Source of the DNA: Candidatus Nanobsidianus stetteri
GTDB lineage: Archaea > Nanobdellota > Nanobdellia > Nanobdellales > Nanobdellaceae
Length of the DNA: 23,031 nt
Assembly (NCBI RefSeq): GCF_003086415.1
Contig: NZ_QEFP02000001.1
Coordinates: forward strand, 1 to 23,031
Reading direction: 5' to 3'
Shown piece by piece: positions 4,422 through 19,527 of the stretch. Numbering within the stretch: the first letter of the stretch is position 1; each line of letters begins with the position of its first letter. A program made the position numbers and the translations under genes. The notes beneath the pieces were generated by a model. It was not told the origin of the DNA and did not search any database. It worked only from the letters and a program-made list of their open reading frames with translations.

Positions 4422-5273
4422 TCATTCTTCTTCAAATTCTTGAACATTACTCTTTCTATATTCAGAATATTTCTCAACTTCTTGCATAGCTTTATTTATT
4501 TCTTCAATCATTTCCTGAGGTATATTATCTATTTTTACATTATTAATTCCTATTCTAATATATTTATCCCATTCAATTTTTATTCCATTTTCATCTATTT
4601 GCATTGGATGTCTTAGTAAACTGTGTTTTGTATCTCTCATCTTCCATACAATAATTGATCTATACAATTTTCCATCTACCTCATCTAAATCCATCCTTAC
4701 AATCCCATCTACTGCATGTTCAACTCCAGGTCCACCAAACCCTCTCTCACCAACAGAAATTTGTGAGACAAATATTGCAGTACATCCCAAACCTGCAATC
4801 AACCTTTTTAATGACATTACTATAGATCTAGCCATTGCCGGTTTTGTCAAATATAATGTAGAAACAGAATCTATAACAACTCTTTTAGCATTTGTATCTT
4901 TTATTGCCTGCCTTACAACATCTAATAGTTCATGTATATTATCTAAATCTCTTACTAAATATCTTTCTCTTTGAGCTGCAGTACCTGTTCCACCAGTAAA
5001 TGCATCTACAATTGCTATTTTTCCTTCTTCCTCATATTTTGATATATCCCATCCAAAATTCTTAAAACTCCTCCTCACAGTTACTGGATGTTCTTCCAAT
5101 GCAATAAATACTCCATTTTCATTATTCTTTAATCCATTATATAAAAATTGTTTACCTAAGATAGATTTTCCTGTACCAGGTCCTCCACTTAATAATACTA
5201 CATTTCTTTCTGGTATTCCTCCATATAATATCTCATCAAATCCTGGTATGTATGTTCTAACTTTATATATCAT
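4422..5273 (-). CDS. KaiC-like / RecA-superfamily ATPase (single KaiC domain, COG0467-like)
   Basis: [40 protein letters not shown] carries the Walker A. Also present are VVIDSVSTL (Walker B-like) and [10 protein letters not shown]. The ORF extends to an ATG at 5303, but that codon lies inside a 20-bp promoter palindrome, so Met-11 (5273) is preferred. Confidence 0.8.
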
Positions 5274-5287
5274 TATAATAATTTGAA

Positions 5288-5307
5288 ATAAATGTTTAAA
5301 CATTTAT
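5288..5307. promoter_or_regulatory. 20-bp perfect palindrome ATAAATGTTTAAACATTTAT in the divergent KaiC-like / DsrE-like intergenic region
   Basis: Read directly: 5288-5297 is the exact reverse complement of 5298-5307. Each half contains a TATA-like ATTTAT/ATAAAT. The right half is centred about 26 nt upstream of the 5333 ATG. Confidence 0.5.
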
Positions 5308-5332
5308 AAATAACAACATTTTTATATCTTTT

Positions 5333-5674
5333 ATGGCAAAATATTTAATATTATTAACGAAAGATGATAAAAATACTTTGGAAATGGCTTTAGAATTTTC
5401 AAAAATATTAAAAATGAGTGGAGCAGAAGATGTAAAAATTTGTTTTATTTTAGCAGGAATTAGAGCTTTAAATAAAGAAAATGAAGAATTTAATTTAATT
5501 ATATCTAAACATTTAGGAGATATGAAAAATTTAAACATAAATATATACGCATGTGAAAAATGTATGGTAAGATTCAATATACCAGAAGAAAAATTAATAT
5601 ATAAAGATAAAATATTTTCATATGAAGAGATGAATAGATTAGTAGATAAAGGATATGCAATAATTACCTTTTAA
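5333..5674 (+). CDS. DsrE/DsrF-like family protein (sulfur-relay / COG2044-like small protein)
   Basis: At 113 aa it has the family layout as I recall it: N-terminal beta-strand (YLILLT), a helix, a second strand (KICFILAGIRAL), a conserved Cys region (IYACEKCMVRFNI) and the C-terminal hydrophobic ...AIITF end. Confidence 0.55.
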   Translation: MAKYLILLTKDDKNTLEMALEFSKILKMSGAEDVKICFILAGIRALNKENEEFNLIISKHLGDMKNLNINIYACEKCMVRFNIPEEKLIYKDKIFSYEEMNRLVDKGYAIITF

Positions 5675-7919
5675 TTTCTATTATTTTTCCTTCAACATTA
5701 TCTTTAAACAAATCATCATGTGTACATAATATTACTTGATAATTATCCAAACTTGATATTAATTGGGCTAAAGATAATCTTACATTTTCATCTAAAGATT
5801 CGGTAGGCTCATCTAATAACAATACATTTATATTTAAATTTAGTATAGAAGCAATTGCCAATCTTAATGCTAAATCCAATATTTTTATTTGTCCTCCACT
5901 TAATCCAGCTTCATCAATATATTTTTTAATAGTTTTTCCATCAATATTTTTAATTACATAAATATAAAATAATTTTTCATCTTTTACCTTACTCTCTTTT
6001 ATATCTATTCCAACATCTACAATATCTTGATATCTATATAACTTCTTAAAATAGAATTTAAATGCATTTTCTAGGTTTTTCGATATTTTTTCTCTATTAA
6101 CTTCTATATATTTTAGTAAAACACCATATAAGGATCTTAAAACATTTATATTTTTACCCATATTCTTTAATTTTTCATTTATATTATTATACATATTTAA
6201 TTTTTCTTTATAATTTTTTATTAATTCTGGTTTTAAATTTTCATATTTTTTTATTTCTTTATCAAGCTCATTCAATTTATCTTCAAACTCTTTTAAAGAA
6301 TTTAAATTATTTCTTTTATATATATCTTTTATTTTTTCCAAATTCTTTTTCATATTTTCTATTTTCATTAAAGAATATCTAATATTATTTATCTCATTTT
6401 TTATATTTTGATATTCCTTTCTTAAATTATCTATAACCTTATCCAATTCATTTTTCTTTATATAATTTATTGTATCTTTTATTATTTTATATTCATTTAT
6501 TTGATTTATTTTATAACTTATTTCATTAATTTCTTTTTCAATCCTTATTTTTTCATTTTCAATATCAGATAAATTTATTTTATCTTTAATTTTTCCTTGA
6601 ATATATAAAAAATACTTATATTTATTTTCTATTTCTTGATATTGTCTATCTAAATTATTTTTTTCATTTTTAAATTTATTTAAATTTTCCTTATCTTTAT
6701 TTAAACTCTCTCTATATTGATTTAACAATTTTTTATGTAAATCTTCATCCAGAGCTCTCTTACATACTGGACATTCCGATATTTCTCTATTTAATATATT
6801 TAAATATTCCTCTTCCTCCCTTATTTTATTTTCCAAAATTATAATATTATTTTCTAATTCTTTCTTTTTATTATCTATATTTTTTATTTCATTTTCTATA
6901 TTTTTATATTCTATATATTTTTCTATATTTGAATATATTTCCTTTAATTCTTTTAATTTATATTCTAATTCTTTTTCATCAACATTTTCCAAATATTCCA
7001 ATTCCTTTTTTCTATTTTCTAAATATTCTAAAGAACTATTTAACAAATCTTTTGAATAATTTTCATATTTGAGATTTTTTCTTTCAGATTCAAGATTTAA
7101 TATATTATCATATAATTCCCTTTCTTTTTCTTCATATTCTTTTAACTTTTGATTTAAGTAATTTTCTTGAGTTAATAAATTATAATCTATACCACTTTCC
7201 AATGTTTTTAACTCTAAATAATCTTTATATATATTATCTCTTATTTTCTTTAATTCCAAATATTTATTAATTTCTTCCAATAATTTATCAATATCTCTAT
7301 CCCCAAAAATGTTCTTATATAATTCTATATCTTTTGATAATAAATTTCTTTCTTTTTCTTTATATTCTTTTTCCTTTTCTAAATCTTTTATTAATCCCTC
7401 AACTACTTTTAATATTAAAGAATAATATTCTATATCAAATATTTTTTCTAATAACTTTGTTAATTCAATTTTTCCAGATAAATTAATATATCTTCCCAAA
7501 TCCCCCTGTTTTATATATAATACATCTGTAAATTTTTCAACTCTATTTATATTCAATATTTCTCTTATTTTTTTATTAACAATATCTGGTCCAGAAGATA
7601 TAACTTTATTACCTTCATATAATATTGCCTTAGATTCTCCATTATTATTTGAAGATCTTATTATTTTGTATAAAGTATTTCCATTAGAAATTTCCAATTC
7701 TACATTTAAATTATATGAACCAATTCTTATTAAAGATGATACATTTGATATATTTATACTGGATAAAGAATCTTTTCCAAATAAACCAAATAATATTGCT
7801 TGAAATATAGAAGTTTTTCCAACTCCATTTTCTCCTATTATTATATTTTTTTCATCAAAATTTATCTCTAAATTTTTATGTATTTTAAAGTTCTCTAATT
7901 TTATTTTATTAATCCTCAT
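5664..7919 (-). CDS. rad50: DNA double-strand break repair ATPase Rad50
   Basis: Shows Walker A GENGVGKTS, a long K/E/N-rich coiled coil with a central zinc hook CPVC (SECPVCKRAL), the signature LSGGQ, Walker B/D-loop LLLDEPTESLD and H-loop CTHD. Its ATG overlaps the mre11 stop by 4 nt. Confidence 0.92.
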   Translation of the reverse strand: MRINKIKLENFKIHKNLEINFDEKNIIIGENGVGKTSIFQAILFGLFGKDSLSSINISNVSSLIRIGSYNLNVELEISNGNTLYKIIRSSNNNGESKAILYEGNKVISSGPDIVNKKIREILNINRVEKFTDVLYIKQGDLGRYINLSGKIELTKLLEKIFDIEYYSLILKVVEGLIKDLEKEKEYKEKERNLLSKDIELYKNIFGDRDIDKLLEEINKYLELKKIRDNIYKDYLELKTLESGIDYNLLTQENYLNQKLKEYEEKERELYDNILNLESERKNLKYENYSKDLLNSSLEYLENRKKELEYLENVDEKELEYKLKELKEIYSNIEKYIEYKNIENEIKNIDNKKKELENNIIILENKIREEEEYLNILNREISECPVCKRALDEDLHKKLLNQYRESLNKDKENLNKFKNEKNNLDRQYQEIENKYKYFLYIQGKIKDKINLSDIENEKIRIEKEINEISYKINQINEYKIIKDTINYIKKNELDKVIDNLRKEYQNIKNEINNIRYSLMKIENMKKNLEKIKDIYKRNNLNSLKEFEDKLNELDKEIKKYENLKPELIKNYKEKLNMYNNINEKLKNMGKNINVLRSLYGVLLKYIEVNREKISKNLENAFKFYFKKLYRYQDIVDVGIDIKESKVKDEKLFYIYVIKNIDGKTIKKYIDEAGLSGGQIKILDLALRLAIASILNLNINVLLLDEPTESLDENVRLSLAQLISSLDNYQVILCTHDDLFKDNVEGKIIEIKR

Positions 7920-9055
7920 TTTATTAATTGTTTAAATATAGTTTCCCTTATTCTATCCAAATCGGAATTTTTACCAGAATACATTTCTTCAAATAATTCT
8001 TTTATATAATTAAACATTTTTATTACTTCTTCCTTATCATTTACAAAAAAAGAACTATCTATTATACTATCTATTGTAATTACTTCATTATTTAATTTTA
8101 TTTCTTCATCTAAAGAATAAGAATCATCTAAAATTAAGTATCCAGATTCCATTAAATTTTCTAATAGATTTTTTATATTAATATAATAATCTTTCTTATA
8201 TCTAACTTTAATTTTTATAATCGTTTCCTTAGATTTATTATAAATATCATTCTTTAGTTTATTTAATCCATAATCATTATTTATTATATCTTCATAAATA
8301 TATATTGGCCTAACATTTAATTCTTTAAATTCTATATTATCATCTCTTACATAAAAAAATCCCTTCTTTATATTTTCTTCATCTTTTGATATTTCAGTCC
8401 TTTCAGTAGAACCTGGTAAAGCAAATATTATATTATCATGTTTTTCCAAATGTTTTTTATGAAAATGACCAAATGCATAATAATTAGCTTTGGGAAAATC
8501 TTCTGGAGATAAAATCCTTGGTTCTTTGCTATAACCTTCTAAAATACTTTCTGGAAATATATTTATTGCACCATGAAACATAAATATTGTATAACCATTA
8601 TTTTCAAATTTTAAATTAGATAAATTCTTTTTATAATATGCTCTCAATTGTTCATATGACAAATTTGATGGTTCAGATATTCCATAAATATATACATCCT
8701 TATATATAAATGGTTCTTTTATATTTGCCTCATATACTAAATCCAATCTTTTTAATATTTCTAAAACATTTTGTCTTAATCCTTTTGTATCATGATTTCC
8801 CCTAATAAATATTAATGGTATTTTATTATCTTTCAATTTAAACAATATATCCAATATTTCCAATAGATATTTTGAATCTATTCTAAAATAATCATCAAAA
8901 AAATCTCCAGAATGAATTATAAAATCTACCTTTTCTTTAATTGCAAATTCTATAACCTGTTTAAACGAATTTAGAAAATCATATTTTCTAATCTCACCAT
9001 ATTCTACCGGAATTTGGCATCCTAAATGGGTATCAGAAACATGAACAAATTTCAT
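7916..9055 (-). CDS. mre11: DNA double-strand break repair nuclease Mre11
   Basis: The calcineurin-like phosphoesterase motifs appear in order: HVSDTHLG, SGDFFD, RGNHD, FMFHG, GHFH. Confidence 0.92.
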   Translation of the reverse strand: MKFVHVSDTHLGCQIPVEYGEIRKYDFLNSFKQVIEFAIKEKVDFIIHSGDFFDDYFRIDSKYLLEILDILFKLKDNKIPLIFIRGNHDTKGLRQNVLEILKRLDLVYEANIKEPFIYKDVYIYGISEPSNLSYEQLRAYYKKNLSNLKFENNGYTIFMFHGAINIFPESILEGYSKEPRILSPEDFPKANYYAFGHFHKKHLEKHDNIIFALPGSTERTEISKDEENIKKGFFYVRDDNIEFKELNVRPIYIYEDIINNDYGLNKLKNDIYNKSKETIIKIKVRYKKDYYINIKNLLENLMESGYLILDDSYSLDEEIKLNNEVITIDSIIDSSFFVNDKEEVIKMFNYIKELFEEMYSGKNSDLDRIRETIFKQLIK

Positions 9056-9519: not shown

Positions 9520-9538
9520 TACAATTATATAAATAAAT

Positions 9539-9555
9539 AGAAAAGTTTATATTTA
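9539..9555 (+). promoter_or_regulatory. BRE/TATA promoter of pilin-like gene A1 (leaderless geometry)
   Basis: AGAAAAGTTTATATTTA, with the TATA centre about 25 nt upstream of the ATG at 9576. A near-identical element precedes paralog A2. Confidence 0.5.
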
Positions 9556-9575
9556 TAAAAAGCTTTATATTTAAA

Positions 9576-10064
9576 ATGGTAAAAAGAACTCAGGGTTTAC
9601 CTTTAAATACTATAATTTTGGCAATTATTGCAATAGTTGTATTGGTATTTCTTATATTAATATTCACTGGTGGAATTGGAAAATTCGTTGGACAAACTAG
9701 TCCATTTACTTCATCTAATCAAACAAATAATGCACTATGTTCAGAATATGCATCAGCAATAAACACACAAATGGGAACTTCTACCGATCCAAATGCTCAA
9801 TTACAAATGTTAGCAAATTCTCAATATGTAACTTCTAACTGTAGTATTTATTTCCAATATTCATTTACTTTATATAATGGTTCTGAAGTTGAATGTGGAC
9901 TTGGTTCAAACGCTTGTATAATGCTCAATTCTAACTCGGGTTCCGGCTCCGGTTCTGGTTCTGGAGGATCTGGTGGATCAGGAGGATCTTCTAGTTCCAG
10001 TAATACTGGTTCTGGATCTTCTTGTGCACCTCCAAATGGTATACCAGGCTGTGAACTTAAATAA
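9576..10064 (+). CDS. Pilin-like secreted/surface protein A1 (class III signal-like N-terminus, 6 Cys, Gly/Ser-rich spacer)
   Basis: The N-terminus MVKRTQGLPLNTIILAIIAIVVLVFLILIF is a short basic leader plus about 20 hydrophobic residues. There are six cysteines and N-x-S/T sequons (NQT, NCS, NGS). It is a paralog of 10145-10564 and lies next to a FlaI/PilB-family ATPase cluster. Confidence 0.6.
   Translation: MVKRTQGLPLNTIILAIIAIVVLVFLILIFTGGIGKFVGQTSPFTSSNQTNNALCSEYASAINTQMGTSTDPNAQLQMLANSQYVTSNCSIYFQYSFTLYNGSEVECGLGSNACIMLNSNSGSGSGSGSGGSGGSGGSSSSSNTGSGSSCAPPNGIPGCELK
9927..10022 (+). repeat. Gly/Ser-rich low-complexity coding tract (NSNSGSGSGSGSGGSGGSGGSSSSSNTGSGSS), specific to paralog A1
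   Basis: Read from the translation. It is locally GC-richer than its surroundings, uses mixed codons (ggt/gga/ggc, tct/tcc/tca/agt), and is absent from paralog A2. Confidence 0.85.
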
Positions 10065-10067
10065 AGA

Positions 10068-10080
10068 TTTATTTTTTATT
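10068..10080 (+). terminator. Oligo-T terminator candidate after A1
   Basis: TTTATTTTTTATT begins 4 nt after the stop codon and is duplicated after A2. Confidence 0.35.
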
Positions 10081-10108
10081 GCTAAATATTATTTATAAGG
10101 AAATACAT

Positions 10109-10125
10109 AGAAAATTTTATATTTA
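10109..10125 (+). promoter_or_regulatory. BRE/TATA promoter of pilin-like gene A2
   Basis: AGAAAATTTTATATTTA, with the TATA centre about 25 nt upstream of the ATG at 10145. It is a duplicate of the 9539-9555 element. Confidence 0.5.
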
Positions 10126-10144
10126 TAAAAAAATTTATATTTAA

Positions 10145-10564
10145 ATGATAAAAAGAACTCAGAATTTGCCTTTAAATACTATAATTCTAGCAATTATTGC
10201 AATAGCTATAGTTGTATTTCTTATTGGAAATTTCATTCTACCACCTAATCAACCAACTCCGCCAACCCCTCCAACTCCATCACCCAATCAAAAAATTTTT
10301 GCGCTATGTTCAGAATATGCATCAGCAATAAACACACAAATGGGAACTTCTACCGATCCAAATGCTCAATTACAAATGTTAGCAAATTCTCAATATGTAA
10401 CTTCTAACTGTAGTATTTATTTCCAATATTCATTTACTTTATATAATGGTTCTGAAGTTGAATGTGGACTTGGTCCAAACTTATGTATAAACCTTTCTGG
10501 AAGTAGCTGTAGTCCATCTATTGCTAGTCCACCCAATGCCATACCTGGTTGTGAACTTAAATAA
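10145..10564 (+). CDS. Pilin-like secreted/surface protein A2 (class III signal-like N-terminus, 6 Cys, Pro/Thr-rich spacer)
   Basis: The N-terminus is MIKRTQNLPLNTIILAIIAIAIVVFLIGNF. The core ALCSEYASAINTQMGTSTDPNAQLQMLANSQYVTSNCSIYFQYSFTLYNGSEVECGLG is identical to A1, as is the C-terminal IPGCELK. Confidence 0.6.
   Translation: MIKRTQNLPLNTIILAIIAIAIVVFLIGNFILPPNQPTPPTPPTPSPNQKIFALCSEYASAINTQMGTSTDPNAQLQMLANSQYVTSNCSIYFQYSFTLYNGSEVECGLGPNLCINLSGSSCSPSIASPPNAIPGCELK
10241..10291 (+). repeat. Pro/Thr-rich low-complexity tract (PPNQPTPPTPPTPSPNQ), specific to paralog A2
   Basis: Read from the translation. It lies directly after the N-terminal hydrophobic helix. The homologous A1 segment has the same length but is strongly diverged. 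Confidence 0.85.
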
Positions 10565-10567
10565 AAA

Positions 10568-10580
10568 TTTATTTTTTATT
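10568..10580 (+). terminator. Oligo-T terminator candidate after A2
   Basis: A duplicate of 10068-10080, placed between the A2 stop and the ATG at 10595. Confidence 0.35.
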
Positions 10581-10594
10581 GCTAAATATTATTT

Positions 10595-11233
10595 ATGATA
10601 GATAAAAATTATGTTTCATCTATTTTAGGTATATCAAAAACAAAATTACAAGAATTAATAAATGAAAAAATAAAGCAATATAAAAATTTAATTGATGAAG
10701 AAACAGCTATTTTATTGATATTAAAAGAAAGAGGACTAACATTAGAAGATTTATATAATATAAAAGTAAAAAATTTATATCCAGGATTAAAAGTAAGAGA
10801 AATAAAATTAAAGATAAATAAAATATTAATAAAAAAGGATAATTTAATAATTCTAGAAGCTGGAGATGAAACAGGATTAATTAAGTTAATAATTAAAGAT
10901 TATAAATGGAAAAGAAAAGAGAACTTATTAAAGGAAAATATTAACATAAAAGTAAAAAATGGTGTTGTTCTAAATAACTTTGTTCTATCAATATTCATAA
11001 ATAATATAGATCTAATAGAGAAGATAGATGAAGATATAAATCTAAATCAAAATTATATATCATATAGACATATAAGATTATTAAAAGAAAGAGAGAATAA
11101 TTATATAGTATTAACAGACAATTTTAATGTATTATATTTAGAAAAGAATATTCAATTAGAATATAATAAAACATATACAATAAAATTTTATAATAAAAGG
11201 CCCATCGAAATTATTGAATTAAAATCCTACTAA
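10595..11233 (+). CDS. Putative single-stranded DNA-binding protein, RPA-like (one OB fold)
   Basis: The N-terminal helical segment LIDEETAILLILKERGL is followed by IKVKNLYPGLKVREIKLKINKIL...LEAGDETGLIKLIIKDYKW. This follows the euryarchaeal RPA pattern as I recall it (L.PG...V.I..RV ... DETG.I.L..W). The identification rests on pattern only. Confidence 0.45.
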   Translation: MIDKNYVSSILGISKTKLQELINEKIKQYKNLIDEETAILLILKERGLTLEDLYNIKVKNLYPGLKVREIKLKINKILIKKDNLIILEAGDETGLIKLIIKDYKWKRKENLLKENINIKVKNGVVLNNFVLSIFINNIDLIEKIDEDINLNQNYISYRHIRLLKERENNYIVLTDNFNVLYLEKNIQLEYNKTYTIKFYNKRPIEIIELKSY

Positions 11234-13003
11234 ACTCATTAATTTATCTGGATTGTTATAATACATACTCATAATTTCTGCAATCTTTCTATAATTTCTT
11301 ATATTATTTTCTAGCATATATTCTAATACCCTTATTTTAAATTTGAAGTTGGTTTCTATATCATTTTTATTCCAATTTCTAATTTCAGCAATTTTATTTA
11401 ATACATAACTTTCTCCCGGTATATATGAATCATCCTTAGGATTCCATCTAAATGAAATTATCCTATCTACATCCTTTTTTTCTTTATTAAATCCTATTAT
11501 TTCATATATTTTATCTACCCTTCTTACATATTTTCCTTGATATCTCAATCTCTTAAGAAATACAACTCCATCCAATACTTCCAATAAAGATGGAGGTAAA
11601 TTAATTGGAGGGGATAATAATCTATCCATTAATGCTTCAAAACTTTCTGCATGTATAGTACCCAAACCAGCATGACCTGTTGCCATTGCCTGAAATAATA
11701 TATAAGCTTCCTCACCTCTTACCTCACCTACAATTATATAATCTGGTCTCTGTCTCAAAGCAGCTTTTAATAGATCAAACATAGTAACTTCACCATATCT
11801 ATTTGGACCATATCCTGGTCTTGCAACTTCTGATAACCAGTTTGGATGTGGTAACTTTAATTCTGCAGTATCTTCTATTGATATTATCTTTTTCTCTGGT
11901 TTGATAAATAGAGATATTGCATTTAAGAATGATGTTTTACCTGTAGCAGTTCCTCCAGATATTAATAATGACCTACCTTCTTCTATTAATGTCCATAAAT
12001 ATGCCAGCATATTAAAGTCAACAGTTCCATATAATAGTAGATCAATTGGCGTGAATGGATCTTCTGTAAATTTTCTAATTGTAAATGAAGAACCTCTCCT
12101 AGAAATATCTTTTCCAAAGGTTATTTGAATTCTTGCTCCATTAGGTAAAGCAGCATCTAATAAAGGATTTGCAACAGAAACAATTCTTCCAGTCCTTACA
12201 GATAACTTTATTACAAAATTATCCAATTCTTCATCAGAATTAAATTGCAAATTTGTTTTTATTTCACCTATTAATGGATTTCTATGGAATATATATATTG
12301 GATAATTTATACCTGTACAGGATATATCTTCTATTAATGGATCTCTCATTAATGGATCTATTATTCCATAACCAATTGTATCCCTTATTATGTAATATAA
12401 TATATATGGTAATTTATTTGGGTCTATCTTATATCCTTTTTCTTTTATTATATTTAAAGATTGCTTTATTATATAATTTTTCATATATTCTTCATTTTTT
12501 TCCATTCCTAAAGGAAGTTCGGATGTTCTTGCTAAATCATCAATTATTGAATTTATAATTTTTCTATCATTTTTATCTATACTAGGTTCTATTACATGAT
12601 ATACAAGCTCCCCATATTCATTATCCCATGATATATCTGCATATGCAAAGATATATTCTCTACCAAGAATATTCATCTTTGTTAGTGGATATCTAAATTG
12701 ATTTATATTTTCATTTTTTCCATACAATTCTATAAAAAAATTAATTTTATCTTTTTCAGTAATTTTTCTATTTTCTGTAGGTATATTAACAAAATTTATA
12801 TTATAAACTTTTTTGTTTCTTTTTTTCTTCTTTCTTTTTTCATATTTATTATTGTTTAATGGTATATAAATTGGTTGATATCCATTATTTGCACCCCCTA
12901 TTATATTTATTTTCTCAGTTCTTTCATTTAATTTTCTTTTTATTTCAATCTTTTTTCTTATTACATCTACAACATCATCAATAAAATCATAAATGTTATT
13001 CAT
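11219..13003 (-). CDS. Type IV filament assembly ATPase, FlaI/ArlI-PilB (GspE/VirB11) family
   Basis: Shows Walker A SGGTATGKTS, an Asp box/Walker B region (RQRPDYIIVGEVRGEEA) and a His box (ATGHAGLGTIHA), plus LVYHVIEP in the N-terminal domain as in FlaI-like proteins. The N-terminus is extended and carries a KRKKKKRNKK insert. Confidence 0.88.
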   Translation of the reverse strand: MNNIYDFIDDVVDVIRKKIEIKRKLNERTEKINIIGGANNGYQPIYIPLNNNKYEKRKKKKRNKKVYNINFVNIPTENRKITEKDKINFFIELYGKNENINQFRYPLTKMNILGREYIFAYADISWDNEYGELVYHVIEPSIDKNDRKIINSIIDDLARTSELPLGMEKNEEYMKNYIIKQSLNIIKEKGYKIDPNKLPYILYYIIRDTIGYGIIDPLMRDPLIEDISCTGINYPIYIFHRNPLIGEIKTNLQFNSDEELDNFVIKLSVRTGRIVSVANPLLDAALPNGARIQITFGKDISRRGSSFTIRKFTEDPFTPIDLLLYGTVDFNMLAYLWTLIEEGRSLLISGGTATGKTSFLNAISLFIKPEKKIISIEDTAELKLPHPNWLSEVARPGYGPNRYGEVTMFDLLKAALRQRPDYIIVGEVRGEEAYILFQAMATGHAGLGTIHAESFEALMDRLLSPPINLPPSLLEVLDGVVFLKRLRYQGKYVRRVDKIYEIIGFNKEKKDVDRIISFRWNPKDDSYIPGESYVLNKIAEIRNWNKNDIETNFKFKIRVLEYMLENNIRNYRKIAEIMSMYYNNPDKLMSLVGF

Positions 13004-13034
13004 ATATTTAATGAAAACTTGGGAAAATATAAAT

Positions 13035-13418
13035 TTAACTTAGATATAAAATAGAATTTGAAGAATAATTGTTATATTGTAAAAAGAAAGAGTTCAAACC
13101 TTGACCATAAATAGGATGAAAGTAAGAGTTATTATTATTCAAATTTATTGATAATAAATTTCCATTATAAGATATATATACAATATTATTAATCGCACTT
13201 ATTGAAAATTTATAATTTTGTGAAGGTTGACAAAAAAGATTTGCATCATATAGGTAAGAATAGTATATACAAAACTCAACATTCGATTCTATATAATTTA
13301 AAACTATTTTATCATAATTTGATGGATTTGTTATATGATTGAAATATAGAATCATTGATTGGGAAATAAAAAATAATATTAAAGTTATTAATACAATTTC
13401 TATTGCATTTACCGGCAT
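13035..13418 (-). CDS. Hypothetical pilin-like protein (127 aa) with N-terminal hydrophobic helix
   Basis: The N-terminus MPVNAIEIVLITLILFFISQSMILYF is followed by an N/Y/S-rich, probably beta-rich extracellular domain. Its ATG overlaps the stop of the 282-aa gene by 1 nt (TAATG), and it lies directly upstream of the ATPase. Confidence 0.45.
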   Translation of the reverse strand: MPVNAIEIVLITLILFFISQSMILYFNHITNPSNYDKIVLNYIESNVEFCIYYSYLYDANLFCQPSQNYKFSISAINNIVYISYNGNLLSINLNNNNSYFHPIYGQGLNSFFLQYNNYSSNSILYLS

Positions 13419-14266
13419 TATACAATAGAAGCTTGTACATAGTAGTATACTAATTGATTACAAACAGTAGAATTTGGATTATTAATAATATTTAATCCAT
13501 TATATTGCAAGTTTACATTAATAGAATTTCCATTTGTTGTAGTTGATGTTTCTCCTGTTGGTTCTATTATTATCCATTCGCATTGCCTATTTTGAGGATT
13601 ATACATTGGCCTACATGCTACCTGATATTGTATAACTCCGCTCAACTGGGTTGCTGAAAGCAAACACTCTGGATAATATGATGATCCTGCTATTCCAGTA
13701 TTATATTGAGGAATAAATAATACATTATTATTCTGAACTTCTATATTAAAATCAAAATATTGTGTTATAACATTATTAGTATTTGCTAAAGGCAATATTA
13801 GAGTATTATTGTTCACATCTTGTATTATTATATTAGAAGAATTCACCTTAACTATAAGATCAGGAATACCGCATAATTGAATAGAATTATAACCGGATGA
13901 AGGTATTGAAATAGAATTATTAACATTACATGGAATATATGTATAGTAATTATAATTTATTGGAATTACGGAAATAGATGGATTATAATAAATTGCAGGG
14001 GACTGAAATGAATATTGAATTAAATTATTATATATATTCAAAGAACCCTCAGGTAAATTTAATGTAACTGTTTGAGATCCTCTACTTTGTACAACAGATG
14101 GTATAGTTTCTGCCAAAGAAGTTAATTGACTCTGTATATCATTTATTGTAGATCTAATTTGAGATTTTTGTATTAGTGGTATACCCCATTCATATATCCC
14201 CATTGACAAACCAACTACAATAAGCCCTAACAATAAATAACTAACAAGCTGAGATTGTAATTTCAT
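13418..14266 (-). CDS. Hypothetical pilin-like / filament-associated protein (282 aa) with class III signal-like N-terminus
   Basis: MKLQSQLVSYLLLGLIVVGLSMGIYEWGIPLI resembles archaeal pilin N-terminal domains: a hydrophobic helix followed by an aromatic Y-x-W. The rest is N/S/T/Y-rich, with 6 Cys and 4 N-x-S/T sequons. Confidence 0.45.
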   Translation of the reverse strand: MKLQSQLVSYLLLGLIVVGLSMGIYEWGIPLIQKSQIRSTINDIQSQLTSLAETIPSVVQSRGSQTVTLNLPEGSLNIYNNLIQYSFQSPAIYYNPSISVIPINYNYYTYIPCNVNNSISIPSSGYNSIQLCGIPDLIVKVNSSNIIIQDVNNNTLILPLANTNNVITQYFDFNIEVQNNNVLFIPQYNTGIAGSSYYPECLLSATQLSGVIQYQVACRPMYNPQNRQCEWIIIEPTGETSTTTNGNSINVNLQYNGLNIINNPNSTVCNQLVYYYVQASIV

Positions 14267-14298
14267 TTTATAAATATATTAAAAAATTTTATTAATTT

Positions 14299-14850
14299 TT
14301 ATATCATCCTGTTATAACTTTGTATTGATGAACTTGTATAACTTGTACTTTGATTACTTTTTATACCCTCTATTTGTTTCTTAAGATTATCTAATAATTC
14401 TGCCACTTTTAGATTGGCTTTTTCTAAGTTTTCTATTCTCTTTAATAGTTCTATATTATTTTCATTTTTTTCTTTCTCTTTTGGCCTTAATAAAGCAGCT
14501 TCTTTAAATATATCAAATAAATTCTTTATTTCTCTATATAAATTATTTGTAACAACCACCAATTCTGATATTCTTGCTTGTAAGTCTATATTACTTTTTA
14601 TTAATGAATTTACAATTTCCTTATAAAATGATGTATCTATGTTTGATTGTGCATAATACATTTGAGCTTGAGCTTCCTTTTTAATTATTGGATTTGTTTC
14701 AGATGGTATTGAAACTTGTCTTTTTATTTCTTCAATATTATTTTTTAAATCATTTTTTAATGTAGCTAAATCGTCCTTTAAATTTTCTATCTCTTCAATC
14801 AATTTTTCAACAGGATCTGTTGGCATAAGTTCATACTCTTGCGATGGCAT
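14299..14850 (-). CDS. Hypothetical soluble coiled-coil protein (183 aa), first gene of the ATPase cluster
   Basis: There are heptad-like K/E/L/N-rich segments at both ends (EKLIEEIENLKDDLATLKNDLKNNIEEIK and IELLKRIENLEKANLKVAELLDNLKKQIEGIK) and no TM segment. It has its own TATA about 25 nt upstream. Confidence 0.5.
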   Translation of the reverse strand: MPSQEYELMPTDPVEKLIEEIENLKDDLATLKNDLKNNIEEIKRQVSIPSETNPIIKKEAQAQMYYAQSNIDTSFYKEIVNSLIKSNIDLQARISELVVVTNNLYREIKNLFDIFKEAALLRPKEKEKNENNIELLKRIENLEKANLKVAELLDNLKKQIEGIKSNQSTSYTSSSIQSYNRMI

Positions 14851-14891: not shown

Positions 14892-16553
14892 CTATTCTTC
14901 AACTTCTCCCTCTTCTCCTGATTTACTTGATGATCCTTCTCCTCCCGTTGATTTTCCTACTGCAGCAATAACATCATCTATCTTCAATATCATTATAGCA
15001 GCTTCTACTGCAGACTTTATAGCTTGTATAGTAATATTTGCTGGTTCTATTACATTTTTCTCCCACATATCTGCAACTTTACCTTCAATTGCATCAATTC
15101 CAGCCCATTTTTTACCTTGCTCATGTAATGCTCTTAATTGTGTCATTGCTTCTATAGTATCCATACCAGCATTTTCTGCCAATGCAGCTGGTATTGCTTC
15201 TAATGCATCTGCAAATGCTAGCATTGCCATTTGTACTTTTGATGATTCCTTTTTTGCTTCTTTTCTTATTCCTTCTGCTAATTCCATTTCCAATGCACCA
15301 CCCCCAGCGATTACTTTTCCATATTTAATTACTGTTGCAACATCTTTAATTGCATCATTTATAGATCTTTCAATCTCATCTGCAACATGCTCAGATCCTG
15401 CTCTTATTAATATTGTAACAGCCTTTGGATTTCTACATCCAGTTATAAATATCATATTTTCATCTGCAACTTTTCTTTCTTCAACTAATTCCGCATATCC
15501 CAAATCATTTTCTGATAATTCATCAATGGAATTTACAATTTTTCCACCAGTTGCTTTAGCTATTTTTTCCATATCTGATTTCTTAACTCTTCTTACCGCT
15601 AATATTCCATATTTTGCCAAATAATAAGCTGCTAAATCATCAACTCCTTTTTGTACAAATACAACATTTGCTCCTACTTCTCTTATCTTTTCTACCATTT
15701 TCCTTAACATCTCTCTTTCCTTATTCAAGAATTGTTCTAATTGATCTGGTGAAGATATATTTATCCTAGCATCTGTTTCTGTTTCTTTAATTTCAATGGC
15801 ATCACCTATTAATGCTATCTTTGCTTTTGAAACAACCTTTGGCATTTCTCCATGTATTTTTTCCTTATCTATTACTATTCCATCTATTAGTGATGTTTCT
15901 TCCACACCACCACCAATTTTCTTTTCAATCTTTAATGAATCAAGATCTACAATTATTTTCTTTTCTCCATTTGATAGTTCTACAACATCCGTTACTTTCC
16001 TAACAGCATCAACAACTATTTTTGCCAATTTATCTGAATAAAGTGATGCTATTTTTGATGATAATGCAGACTTTGCAACCTTTATTAATATTTCTTCATC
16101 ATTCATTGATACCTTTTGAGCTAACTTATTTACTAATTCTTCAGCAATAACTGCTGCCTTACTATAACCTTCCATAATAACTGTTGGATGTATATTTTTA
16201 TCCAATAATTCATCCGCTCTCTTTAATAATTCACCTGCCAAAACTGTAGATCTTTTAGTACCATCACCAACTTCTTTATCTTGTGTTTTTGCTATTTCTA
16301 TTATTAACTTAGCAGCAGGATGCTCAACATGCATTTGATCCAATATTGTTGCCCCATCATTTGTAACAGTTATATCTCCCAATTCATCTACTAACATTTT
16401 ATCCATTCCCCTTGGTCCTAAAGATGTTTTTAATATTTCCGATACCAATACAGCTGCCATGATGTTTGATCTCATTGCTTCTCTACCTATTGTTCTCGCA
16501 TATTTTTCTGGAGATAATACAATAGGATATAATCCTTTTTTCTCTTCTGCCAT
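14892..16553 (-). CDS. ths: Thermosome subunit (group II chaperonin)
   Basis: Carries LGPRGMDKMLV, VTNDGATIL, EVGDGTK and VAGGGALEMELA, the hallmark group II chaperonin motifs, at full length (553 aa). Confidence 0.95.
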   Translation of the reverse strand: MAEEKKGLYPIVLSPEKYARTIGREAMRSNIMAAVLVSEILKTSLGPRGMDKMLVDELGDITVTNDGATILDQMHVEHPAAKLIIEIAKTQDKEVGDGTKRSTVLAGELLKRADELLDKNIHPTVIMEGYSKAAVIAEELVNKLAQKVSMNDEEILIKVAKSALSSKIASLYSDKLAKIVVDAVRKVTDVVELSNGEKKIIVDLDSLKIEKKIGGGVEETSLIDGIVIDKEKIHGEMPKVVSKAKIALIGDAIEIKETETDARINISSPDQLEQFLNKEREMLRKMVEKIREVGANVVFVQKGVDDLAAYYLAKYGILAVRRVKKSDMEKIAKATGGKIVNSIDELSENDLGYAELVEERKVADENMIFITGCRNPKAVTILIRAGSEHVADEIERSINDAIKDVATVIKYGKVIAGGGALEMELAEGIRKEAKKESSKVQMAMLAFADALEAIPAALAENAGMDTIEAMTQLRALHEQGKKWAGIDAIEGKVADMWEKNVIEPANITIQAIKSAVEAAIMILKIDDVIAAVGKSTGGEGSSSKSGEEGEVEE

Positions 16554-17902: not shown

Positions 17903-18535
17903 ATGAAAAGAGAAAAAGTTATTAATTTATTGATTTTAGTCATAGCTTTTATAATTTTAGTATTAATAATAACTATCAAATCTAAAATAATAAATTATAC
18001 AAATAATATTAATAACAATCAGACCTATGTATATACAAATCCAAATAATATAACAATTGCCGGACCATATAATATTACACAATTAGAATTTATACCAATA
18101 TATTCAAATACAAGTTTATATAATTCATTAAATAACTATAAATATCAAGTATTTATTTTTGATCCAACATTAAGTGGATATTATAACGCAGAAATCCTCT
18201 ATATATTGATATATTTATTAAAATATAATAAAAATTTAATATATGCATGTTCTTTCTACTATAATGGTCCTGGATGCAAATATTTTTTAGAAAATAATAG
18301 TATAAACGATAATTATATTTTCTTATATACTACATATAACAATAATGAAAATTTAACATATATTCTACCAAGAAATGAAACATTATTAATATATTTATTA
18401 CCAACAAACGATTCTTATGGAATAATATTTAATAATCAAAACAATACAGTTATTATATATAATAATAATAGCATAATTGCTGAAGAAATGGCTGAGAAGT
18501 TTATATTATACTATTATGGAATTATCAATAGTTAA
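17903..18535 (+). CDS. Hypothetical N-terminally anchored, Asn/Tyr-rich probable surface glycoprotein
   Basis: MKREKVINLLILVIAFIILVLIITIKSK is a signal anchor. The remaining 180 aa contain 11 N-x-S/T sequons by my count (NYT, NQT, NIT x2, NTS, NNS x2, NLT, NET, NDS, NNT). Confidence 0.5.
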   Translation: MKREKVINLLILVIAFIILVLIITIKSKIINYTNNINNNQTYVYTNPNNITIAGPYNITQLEFIPIYSNTSLYNSLNNYKYQVFIFDPTLSGYYNAEILYILIYLLKYNKNLIYACSFYYNGPGCKYFLENNSINDNYIFLYTTYNNNENLTYILPRNETLLIYLLPTNDSYGIIFNNQNNTVIIYNNNSIIAEEMAEKFILYYYGIINS

Positions 18536-18974
18536 GGGAATATTAAATTATCAGTTTGGAGATAATATTGGAGATAAAATAATTGAAAAATATAAAGAAA
18601 AAATAAAAATTGAAAAAAGCAAAAAAACTGGGAGAATAAGAAGAATATATATAGATGATAAATTATTTGGAACAATAGAACCAACAACAGGATTTATTAT
18701 ATTAACGTTTTATGGAGGATTAATAGTAAAAGAACTGTTAAAATTTCCAAAGTATAGGATTGTTGTAAAAGATGAAGCAGTAAAATTTATAAAAGAGGGA
18801 AAATCTGTATTTAATAAATTTGTTGATAATTTGGATGAAAATATATTGCCAAAAGATATTGTATTAATAGTAGATAAAAATGATAATTTACTAGCAATAG
18901 GAGAAAGTTTATTATCTGGAAAAGAAATTAAAGATTTTAAAATAGGAGTTGCTGCAAAAGTAAAAAATGTTTGA
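18516..18974 (+). CDS. PUA domain-containing RNA-binding protein
   Basis: The N-terminal ILNYQFGDNIG motif and the C-terminal PUA-like segment (VKFIKEGKSVFNKFVDNLDENILPKDIVLIVDKNDNLLAIGESLLSGKEI) support the call. The ORF opens at 18477, but Met-14 (18516) gives the conserved N-terminus. Confidence 0.6.
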   Translation: MELSIVKGILNYQFGDNIGDKIIEKYKEKIKIEKSKKTGRIRRIYIDDKLFGTIEPTTGFIILTFYGGLIVKELLKFPKYRIVVKDEAVKFIKEGKSVFNKFVDNLDENILPKDIVLIVDKNDNLLAIGESLLSGKEIKDFKIGVAAKVKNV

Positions 18975-19527
18975 ATATATAATAAAAAAATATTATGGTA
19001 AATTAATAGATTATGCAAAAAGTAATAAAATATTAAGAAAGGAATTACTTTTATCTATATTTTTTGCAAATATGTTAATATACTCAATACCGCTATTTTT
19101 ATTTAGTTATTATTATATTGTTTTACCATATAATTTTTTGATAAGTTATTCAGAAATTATATCAAAGATATTATACTATTCTCATATAAATTTTACGTTA
19201 GAAAATAATGTTGTATATATAAAAAATATAAGTTTTATAATTGATCAAGAATGCACTGGCTTTAAATCAATATTTGGTATATTTGCCCTAGTATTTTCTA
19301 CACCTACATTAAATATAAAGAAAAAAATATATTATTTCATTATTCTTTCGCCAATATTGTTTATATTAAATATATTTAGGTTATGGTCTGTCTTTTATTT
19401 TTATTACATATTTAATGTTAATCCCTATTTCTTACATGATTTTTTATGGGAAATATTTACAACACTGTTTTTAATTATTTTTTGGCTAATATTTTTAATA
19501 AAAAATAAAAAAGAATTATTCGTTTAA
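18967..19527 (+). CDS. Small archaeosortase/exosortase-family protein (putative)
   Basis: It is a polytopic 186-aa protein with the family's ordered signature as I recall it: a loop then IIDQECTGFKSIFGIFAL (Cys96), ILNIFRLW (Arg138) and FLHDFLWEIF (His157). Its ATG overlaps the PUA gene stop by 8 nt. Confidence 0.5.
   Translation: MFEYIIKKYYGKLIDYAKSNKILRKELLLSIFFANMLIYSIPLFLFSYYYIVLPYNFLISYSEIISKILYYSHINFTLENNVVYIKNISFIIDQECTGFKSIFGIFALVFSTPTLNIKKKIYYFIILSPILFILNIFRLWSVFYFYYIFNVNPYFLHDFLWEIFTTLFLIIFWLIFLIKNKKELFV

Follow-up and report, generated by a model that had tools for sequence, protein, structure and literature searches.

The stretch of DNA analysed here, 23,031 nucleotides from Candidatus Nanobsidianus stetteri (contig NZ_QEFP02000001.1, positions 1 to 23,031 of the forward strand; hereafter the window), has a G+C content of approximately 24% and carries a locus of seven open reading frames (ORFs) encoding a secretion ATPase together with pilin-like and coiled-coil proteins. 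ORF calling placed two pilin-like genes of 162 aa (9576-10064) and 139 aa (10145-10564) on the plus strand, followed by an RPA-like gene of 212 aa (10595-11233). On the minus strand lie the genes for the 594-aa ATPase (11219-13003), a 127-aa candidate minor pilin (13035-13418), a 282-aa pilin-like protein of the DUF7289 family (13418-14266) and a 183-aa coiled-coil protein (14299-14850). The two modules meet where the 594-aa and 212-aa ORFs overlap convergently by 15 bp (11219-11233), and the 282-aa and 127-aa genes are joined by a TAATG overlap, read as ...GTATAATGCCG.... The ORFs and both overlaps had been given at the same positions in a preliminary description of the window, in which the locus was interpreted as a non-canonical type IV filament system with an orphan ATPase, five uncharacterised structural genes, and neither a platform protein nor a prepilin peptidase. 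In the published gene tables the corresponding genes are Nst1_086 / Nps_01185 (pilin-like), Nst1_087 / Nps_01180 (RPA-like), Nst1_088 / Nps_01175 (ATPase), Nst1_089 / Nps_01170 (127-aa), Nst1_090 / Nps_01165 (282-aa) and Nst1_091 / Nps_01160 (coiled-coil).

The 594-aa protein belongs to the secretion ATPases of the GspE/FlaI/VirB11 superfamily, as its first assignment to the FlaI/PilB family had implied, with a Pfam T2SSE match of 5e-36 and a weak match to PilB3_C. Against the PDB it matched A. fulgidus GspE (afGspE, 2OAP) at 395 bits (4e-117) and S. acidocaldarius FlaI (4II7) at 304 bits. The Walker A (GGTATGKTS), Walker B (DYIIVGEVRG) and His box motifs are intact in the translation, and the protein has a Lys-rich N-terminal extension. 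The best NCBIfam model was FlaI, at 425 bits and thus under its cutoff of 550, and the second-ranked model was the bindosome ATPase BasE. An exact-sequence lookup matched no record; identity was 95% to the ATPase of Nanobsidianus stetteri Nst1, 92% to that of N. acidilobi, and 45-50% to other DPANN orthologues. In the supplement of Makarova, Koonin & Albers 2016 (PMC4858521), an Nst1 ATPase (GI 490715254) is assigned to Clade_2, where its sister is a protein of N. equitans; we take this Nst1 entry to be Nst1_088, judging by how GI numbers and locus tags are spaced. The nearer similarity to afGspE than to FlaI is consistent with this placement. Nst1_088 was named by Podar et al. (2013) only as 'FlaI paralog, not shown', outside the archaellum set.

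Conservation of the gene order was examined in related genomes, as the preliminary description had proposed. The order (thermosome, coiled-coil, 282-aa, 127-aa and ATPase genes, then the convergent RPA-like and pilin-like genes) was identical in 10 of the 11 Nanopusillaceae loci related to the window, the remaining one (L008) starting inside the cluster and being rearranged downstream. All ORFs were intact in 11 genomes covering 69-95% ATPase identity. Ratios of non-synonymous to synonymous substitution rates (dN/dS), computed pairwise against three relatives, were 0.06-0.57 over all genes and 0.06-0.34 for those of the minus strand (ATPase, 0.10-0.18; 282-aa, 0.10-0.20; 127-aa, 0.06-0.34), the highest values in the locus being those of the pilin-like gene (0.37-0.57). 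This indicates purifying selection, and the genes of the locus are therefore functional, with the pilin-like gene the fastest-evolving. Since gene order is conserved and selection is purifying, the arrangement is not a matter of chance.

Beside the Nanopusillaceae, the genome scan gave 55 loci of other DPANN lineages. In the closest of these (L013, L015, L017-L021, L023, L024, L062 and L064; ATPase identity 45-50%) the upstream side consists of a coiled-coil protein, preceded in some by the thermosome gene, one or two PilA-like pilins, and a homologue of the 282-aa protein of approximately 200-330 aa. The PilA-like pilins begin M..[KR]K[GA]↓ITPVIAVVLLL (the arrow here and below marks the putative cleavage site). 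In L016, L018 and L019 a protein of 145-150 aa lies between the 282-aa homologue and the ATPase. After the ATPase, the closest loci encode a membrane protein of approximately 289 aa, then one of approximately 375 aa, each with a T2SSF domain (Pfam 4e-15 and 2e-14), followed by another two pilin-like proteins with N-terminal anchors. The description of the locus as a non-canonical, platform-less system did not hold up at this point, as the closest orthologous DPANN ATPases directly precede two half-size T2SSF/TadC genes. Only the part of the operon up to the ATPase is kept in Nanopusillaceae, namely the coiled-coil protein, the DUF7289-like pilin, the small pilin-like protein and the ATPase itself. 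We therefore read the locus, with a probability of roughly 70%, as the ATPase-plus-pilin half of a euryarchaeal/DPANN clade-2 type IV pilus operon split up within the Nanopusillaceae; so read, it is a fragmented known system and not a new type of machine. Two side observations were made among the DPANN loci. Aenigmatarchaeota-type loci (L025, L026, L028, L030, L031, L036, L037) have a related ATPase first, a KaiC/FlaH-like gene after it and two half-size T2SSF genes last, an order that departs from the canonical flaH-flaI-flaJ. The orthologous ATPase ORF of L064 (Parvarchaeota; 9536-14545) is 1669 aa long compared with approximately 600-650 aa in relatives, and could contain an intein or a large insertion.

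Each of the 162-, 139-, 127- and 282-aa proteins has a single N-terminal hydrophobic segment according to segment prediction and AlphaFold2 models, which bears out the N-terminal pilin-like helices claimed earlier for the 282- and 127-aa proteins. Pfam and NCBIfam searches with these four proteins gave no usable match. The 282-aa protein begins MKLQSQLVSYLLLGLIVVG...WG.PL..K, continues as a long helix, and ends in an all-beta domain; six cysteines are invariant in its family. Its identity is 84-91% to proteins from hot-spring metagenomes, 87% to Nps_01165 and 61-65% to proteins of YN1 and Nanobdella aerobiophila, and in 24 of 27 DPANN loci a homologue precedes the ATPase gene by one or two positions. 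Pfam DUF7289 was matched by 11 of the 21 members of the family alignment (best 4.8e-9), and not by the window protein itself even at E=1 (gathering score 27 bits); by transitive homology through the alignment, the window protein is a putative member of DUF7289. A literature search on DUF7289 found no paper. The protein probably corresponds to the arCOG02911-type 'signature minor pilin' of clade-2 systems, an equation of DUF7289 with arCOG02911 suggested by position, size and fold. In the best AlphaFold2 model (predicted local distance difference test score, pLDDT, 80.5; predicted template modelling score 0.70), a helix spanning residues 2-61 with a kink at 28-30 is followed by approximately 17 beta strands, a predicted structure compatible with an extracellular pilin whose beta domain is large. 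The first 40 columns of the family resemble the DPANN PilA-like family (hhalign probability 82%), and a PDB profile search with the family gave marginal matches of the N-terminal helix only (8FK7, 0.032; PilE1, 0.042).

The 127-aa protein begins MPVNAIEIVLITLILFF, without a basic leader, and a small Cys-containing domain follows. Glu 7 is invariant across its family, which comprises 6 clusters among 1.84 billion representatives, and every member begins M-[PV]-x-x-x-x-E-[IV]-x-L-I-x-L-[IV]-[LM]-F. Its gene holds the operon slot taken in L016, L018 and L019 by the 145-150-aa proteins, which give weak DUF7266 matches (7.6e-5 to 3e-3); the family itself had no Pfam match, and no hhalign signal linked it to these DUF7266-like proteins. 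It is regarded as a candidate minor pilin on positional and topological grounds only.

For the 183-aa protein no transmembrane segment was predicted and no Pfam family was found, and its matches were weak and of coiled-coil type. Its N-terminal motif EYEL(V/M)P..P..K(L/I) is conserved, and homologues occupy the same slot, after the thermosome gene and before the pilins, in L015, L021, L062 and L064, with 12 invariant columns across phyla. The published proteome of N. acidilobi includes its orthologue, Nps_01160, and in a published population study the coiled-coil gene, with 46.8 non-synonymous single-nucleotide polymorphisms (nSNPs) per kb, was among those with the highest densities. The protein is thus an accessory component that has been conserved with the operon, and it may act in the cytoplasm as a regulator or scaffold. 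The thermosome gene (window 14892-16553) adjoins the coiled-coil/pilin/ATPase cluster both in Nanopusillaceae and in distant DPANN (L016, L017, L021, L062, L064). Of the five proteins originally called uncharacterised, the 282-aa (DUF7289) and 183-aa proteins thus belong to families of a conserved DPANN operon, and the label stands for the 127-aa and 162/139-aa proteins, which are lineage-specific and have no recognisable family.

The 162- and 139-aa genes, previously noted as Cys-rich paralogs, arose by a tandem duplication of approximately 569 bp, with blocks 83-93% identical within window 9531-10596; the duplication takes in the upstream A/T-rich region (9531-9575 / 10101-10145). Two copies were found in the window strain only; in other Nanopusillaceae the gene is single, and its low-complexity inserts vary between strains. 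The 139-aa protein has Asn at position -1 of its putative cleavage site. The copies differ further in a Pro-rich linker after the transmembrane segment in copy 2 (139 aa) and a Ser/Gly low-complexity insert (approximately 9940-10030) in copy 1 only. As a side observation, the contig of a public Nanobsidianus stetteri metagenome-assembled genome ends within the second copy (P0208). The 162-aa protein, 99% identical to Nanobsidianus stetteri DDW05_01955, consists of the leader MVKRTQG↓LPLNTIILAIIAIVV, a variable linker, a compact alpha/beta domain of approximately 90 aa, the Ser/Gly insert and a conserved C-terminus, IPGCELK. The family is nearly restricted to Nanopusillaceae and highly variable (48-99% identity, 110 matches). 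AlphaFold2 gave five concordant models of five for the 139-aa protein (pLDDT 80.8), with a transmembrane helix at 10-28, a disordered segment at 29-46 and a compact domain at 47-139 that contains the conserved cysteines; Foldseek found no PDB neighbour for this model. In the population study mentioned above the pilin-like gene (46.5 nSNPs per kb) was likewise among those with the highest non-synonymous densities. Fast-evolving and duplicated, the 162/139-aa protein is a candidate major or surface subunit and, of the proteins of the locus, the likeliest to be exposed and host-facing.

The most serious alternative is that only the minus-strand genes belong to pilus machinery and the 162/139-aa proteins are surface proteins with plain signal anchors, unrelated to it and nearby by chance, or that the machine is a short pseudopilus or a secretion or bindosome-like device. 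The 162/139-aa genes lie on the opposite strand, are separated from the ATPase gene by the RPA-like gene, and have no counterpart in the DPANN operons; their model has a flexible linker in place of a continuous pilin helix; and BasE ranks second among the NCBIfam models of the ATPase. Position -2 of the family is Q, not the K/R of the class III signal peptide ([KR][GA]↓), and neither Pilin_N nor the profile of the DPANN PilA-like family was matched. Nevertheless, conservation of the leader, MVKRTQ[G 55 / S 24 / N 2]↓LP(L/I)NT, exceeds 90%, its -1 residue is small and a hydrophobic helix comes after it, and the first 69 residues of the family align with a solved archaeal type IV pilus subunit, that of Pyrobaculum calidifontis (8FK7, E=0.009). 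Two short relatives also flank a related ATPase in the nanohaloarchaeal locus L045, and the linkage to the ATPase gene is found in all Nanopusillaceae, the rearranged L008 included. We consider this alternative improbable, though it deserves more weight than any of those below.

No platform gene was found beside the ATPase gene, in agreement with the preliminary description. The polytopic proteins of the window are a TauE/TSUP protein, SpoIIM and a short exosortase-like protein, none of which has a T2SSF or peptidase A24 domain, and nothing supports the archaeosortase-like or the SpoIIM-like protein as a stand-in peptidase or platform. A canonical PilC/FlaJ gene just outside the window was looked for as well; no T2SSF gene, and no prepilin peptidase gene either, lies within 10 kb in the 11 related Nanopusillaceae loci. 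The gene table of N. acidilobi (Wurch et al. 2016, Supplementary Data) lists five type IV filament ATPases, and for four of them a platform is adjacent or, for the archaellum FlaI, is the one FlaJ-type gene. Nps_03100 adjoins TadC Nps_03105, Nps_03260 adjoins TadC Nps_03255 and Nps_03250, and Nps_02250 adjoins T2SSF Nps_02245; the archaellum ATPase Nps_00925 lies with FlaH and FlaD/E, and FlaJ Nps_02340 lies alone beside ribosomal protein L4. The ATPase of the studied locus, Nps_01175, has no adjacent platform. A single ATPase-less TadC pair is listed, Nps_01915 (5 transmembrane segments) and Nps_01920 (4), flanked by proteins with one transmembrane segment and an NDP-sugar pyrophosphorylase. 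As the sole unpaired TadC pair, it would by elimination be the partner of Nps_01175, and its layout (TadC, TadC, single-segment protein) suggests the missing second half of the DPANN operon. The ATPase called an orphan is accordingly one only locally: it lacks a platform at its own locus, and a TadC pair is listed elsewhere in the N. acidilobi genome. Archaellum genes, too, are dispersed among four or more sites of that genome, so operon break-up is a genome-wide habit of the lineage and not special to the pilus.

A metagenome scan with the alignment of the first TadC after the ATPase (+1) gave the contig L106 (25.6% G+C), which encodes an NTP-transferase, a 236-aa protein with one transmembrane segment (MKKSVSWIEFLI...), two T2SSF genes and large immunoglobulin (Ig)-domain proteins, and no ATPase. 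Over their full length its TadCs are closest to the DPANN +1 (36-40%) and +2 (27-31%) genes, and its gene content parallels that of Nps_01895-01925. Beside the TadC pair (L106 3763-8203) lie a 790-aa Ig-like-domain protein with N- and C-terminal hydrophobic segments and three more secreted beta-rich proteins, which are possible adhesins of the same system.

These results also bear on whether the locus encodes a self-contained filament working without any PilC/FlaJ/TadC-type platform. The absence of T2SSF genes from the window and from 10 kb around the related loci would fit such a machine, as would a groundwater DPANN locus, L016, with the same truncated layout (DUF7289-like protein, small pilin-like protein, ATPase, and no TadC directly downstream). 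However, a +2-type TadC lies approximately 6 kb from the ATPase locus in L016 itself, two TadC genes directly follow the ATPase in close orthologues, and ATPase-less TadC pairs are found in the N. acidilobi table and on L106. We know of no type IV filament ATPase that functions without a platform, and we regard a platform-less machine as very unlikely.

It is equally hard to see the locus as a decaying relic left after loss of the platform genes. The ATPase and the 282-aa, 127-aa and pilin-like proteins were undetected in the published N. acidilobi proteome, and the cleavage motif of the 282-aa family is degenerate, with L at -1; against decay stand the intact ORFs in 11 genomes, the minus-strand dN/dS values given above, the intact catalytic motifs of the ATPase and the expressed coiled-coil protein.

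Least tenable, and rejected here, is the view that the locus is part of an archaellum, a FlaI with FlaG/FlaF-like and FlaC/D/E-like neighbours: FlaI is the best NCBIfam model, the gene is annotated in IMG as 'flagellar protein FlaI', and a coiled-coil protein, two anchored proteins and an ATPase superficially recall flaX-flaG-flaF-(flaH)-flaI, but the FlaI score is under the cutoff, the ATPase is nearer to afGspE and is placed in Clade_2 rather than the archaellum clade, Nst1_088 stands outside the archaellum set of Podar et al. (2013), a distinct FlaI is encoded in N. acidilobi together with FlaH and FlaD/E (Nps_00925-00940), as are archaellins and FlaJ at other sites, the KaiC-like gene of the window is thermo_KaiC_1 and not ArlH, and the orthologous operons hold PilA-like pilins and two TadC genes instead of archaellins or FlaJ. 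The preliminary description, which had found no archaellin signature, was right to set the archaellum aside.

Several points nonetheless weigh against a split clade-2 pilus operon. The pairing of the ATPase with its TadC genes comes by elimination from a published annotation table and not from TadC sequences; L106 is nanoarchaeon-like, its assignment to Nanopusillaceae being by G+C content and gene order only; and of the 49 matches of a T2SSF profile search, in which the 8000 candidates sharing most words were scored, none was attributable to Nanopusillaceae. Profile-profile comparison of the 127-aa and 162/139-aa families with all pilin-like families of the DPANN loci gave nothing significant, and their folds have no PDB neighbour. 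Only one of the five AlphaFold2 models of the 282-aa protein is confident (the other four have pLDDT 52-59), and the disordered linker of the 162/139-aa model, between the transmembrane helix and the globular domain, differs from the continuous helix of classic pilins. To these are added the absence of the ATPase and pilin-like proteins from the published proteome, the fact that an assembled filament of these proteins is predicted from genes alone, and the absence of A24, arCOG02298, arCOG02300 and arCOG07367 from the N. acidilobi table, a result that concerns annotation only, no whole-genome search with hidden Markov models having been run.

The last point raises the matter of pilin maturation. 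Makarova et al. (PMC4858521) found no prepilin peptidase in two nanoarchaea, and the gene table of the host of N. acidilobi lists one prepilin peptidase entry. In the 282-aa family Leu occupies -1 (MKL↓QS) in 28 of 33 sequences; the Nanobdella form is MKKG↓QS, and that of other DPANN is M[KR][GA]↓QS. The 127-aa family is almost leaderless (MP-VNAIE...), its invariant Glu becoming residue 5 if two residues are removed. Judged by their sequences, the cleavage motifs of the pilin candidates thus appear partly degenerate, with the 162/139 leader well conserved. It is conceivable, if rather doubtful, that Nanopusillaceae build a type IV filament without a class III signal peptidase, their near-leaderless pilins being left unprocessed or trimmed by another enzyme; if true, such a peptidase-free filament would break with the rule by which every type IV filament system requires a prepilin peptidase.

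The RPA-like gene (NCBIfam replication factor A N-terminus, 2.6e-6), whose N. acidilobi orthologue is listed under arCOG01510 by Wurch et al. (2016, Supplementary Data), had been counted as an OB-fold member of the plus-strand module. Its 15-bp 3'-end overlap with the ATPase gene was found in every Nanopusillaceae genome, and it was not found in the orthologous pilus operons of other DPANN, for which reason we place it outside the pilus module; it would mark the breakpoint that formerly held the TadC genes. The housekeeping genes of the window are typically archaeal (S4, Cbf5, RNase HII, Rad50/Mre11, thermosome and a fragment of the DNA polymerase II large subunit). Rad50 and Mre11 (window 4422-9055) are flanked by a DsrE-like gene and a KaiC-domain protein; no HerA or NurA gene lies within the window. 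The KaiC-like gene was considered as FlaH/ArlH and ruled out by NCBIfam scores of 435 bits on thermo_KaiC_1 against 53 bits on ArlH (cutoff 215). In the region 17903-19527, a short protein of the exosortase/archaeosortase family (186 aa; Pfam 5e-11) is encoded two genes away from an N-terminally anchored protein of 210 aa with many N-glycosylation sequons, and the two could be a sorting enzyme and its substrate.

A split clade-2 pilus operon may be compared with systems already described. The clade-2 plan (PMC4858521) has an all-beta minor pilin of approximately 250-550 aa, arCOG02911, directly upstream of the ATPase, often with two tadC genes and with PilA-family major pilins; examples are the arCOG02911-ATPase-TadC arrangement of Aciduliprofundum and PilB3/PilC3 of Haloferax volcanii, with PilA pilins in trans. 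The studied locus shares the ATPase clade and the upstream signature pilin, and the orthologous DPANN loci add the PilA-like pilins and two TadC genes. Placement of ATPase/TadC and pilins in different loci is documented for clade-2 systems; here the split runs between the ATPase and the TadC genes. Unlike those systems, the studied locus has lineage-specific proteins replacing PilA-like pilins, an extra coiled-coil gene and no annotated peptidase. In Fig. 2A of Makarova, Wolf & Koonin 2019 (PMC6393860), type IV pilus islands of DPANN with 'dark matter' pilins combine a FlaI-type ATPase, TadB/TadC and signal-peptide proteins predicted as pilins, a scheme that L013-L024, L062 and L064 fit; compared with the islands drawn there, the window carries the upstream half only, and the passages of that paper compared here do not treat the Nanopusillaceae locus or its coiled-coil component. 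The Epd pilus, or archaeal type IV filament 'system 1' (bioRxiv 10.64898/2026.04.22.720090), and the bacterial Tad pilus have a two-gene platform and many minor pilins, and system 1 occurs in DPANN; the Epd system differs in having its own peptidase, EpdA, and a major pilin without a globular domain, and the Nst1 ATPase was published as clade 2, not clade 1. With the archaellum the locus shares the ATPase superfamily and N-terminally anchored subunits; it differs in ATPase clade and in lacking FlaH, archaellin and FlaJ.

It was already known that the ATPase is a FlaI paralog of type IV pilus clade 2, and DPANN islands with unrecognisable pilins had been described in general terms. The literature lists nanoarchaeal type IV pilus ATPases and TadC genes and leaves the neighbouring genes 'hypothetical', and for one nanoarchaeal ATPase clade the pilins had escaped identification. 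What is new is the linkage of four structural candidates and a conserved cytoplasmic partner to Nst1_088 / Nps_01175, a split-operon model with a named TadC pair, and a sharpened question of how pilins mature without a recognisable prepilin peptidase.

If the locus is half of a split pilus operon, a TadC pair encoded elsewhere in the genome (Nps_01915/01920 in N. acidilobi) would be the docking site of the ATPase hexamer, which would extract N-terminally anchored subunits from the membrane and assemble them into a filament at the cell surface. The role of minor or priming pilins would fall to the 282- and 127-aa proteins and that of the exposed subunit to the variable, duplicated 162/139-aa protein, with the 183-aa coiled-coil protein as cytoplasmic regulator or scaffold. 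The filament would probably serve attachment to the host archaeon, a role already proposed for nanoarchaeal type IV pili (PMC6142677). For Nanoarchaeota, which grow attached to a host archaeon, surface appendages are foremost candidates for recognising that host; the linked proteins are concrete targets for proteomics, cryo-electron tomography and antibody work in the N. acidilobi-Acidilobus co-culture.

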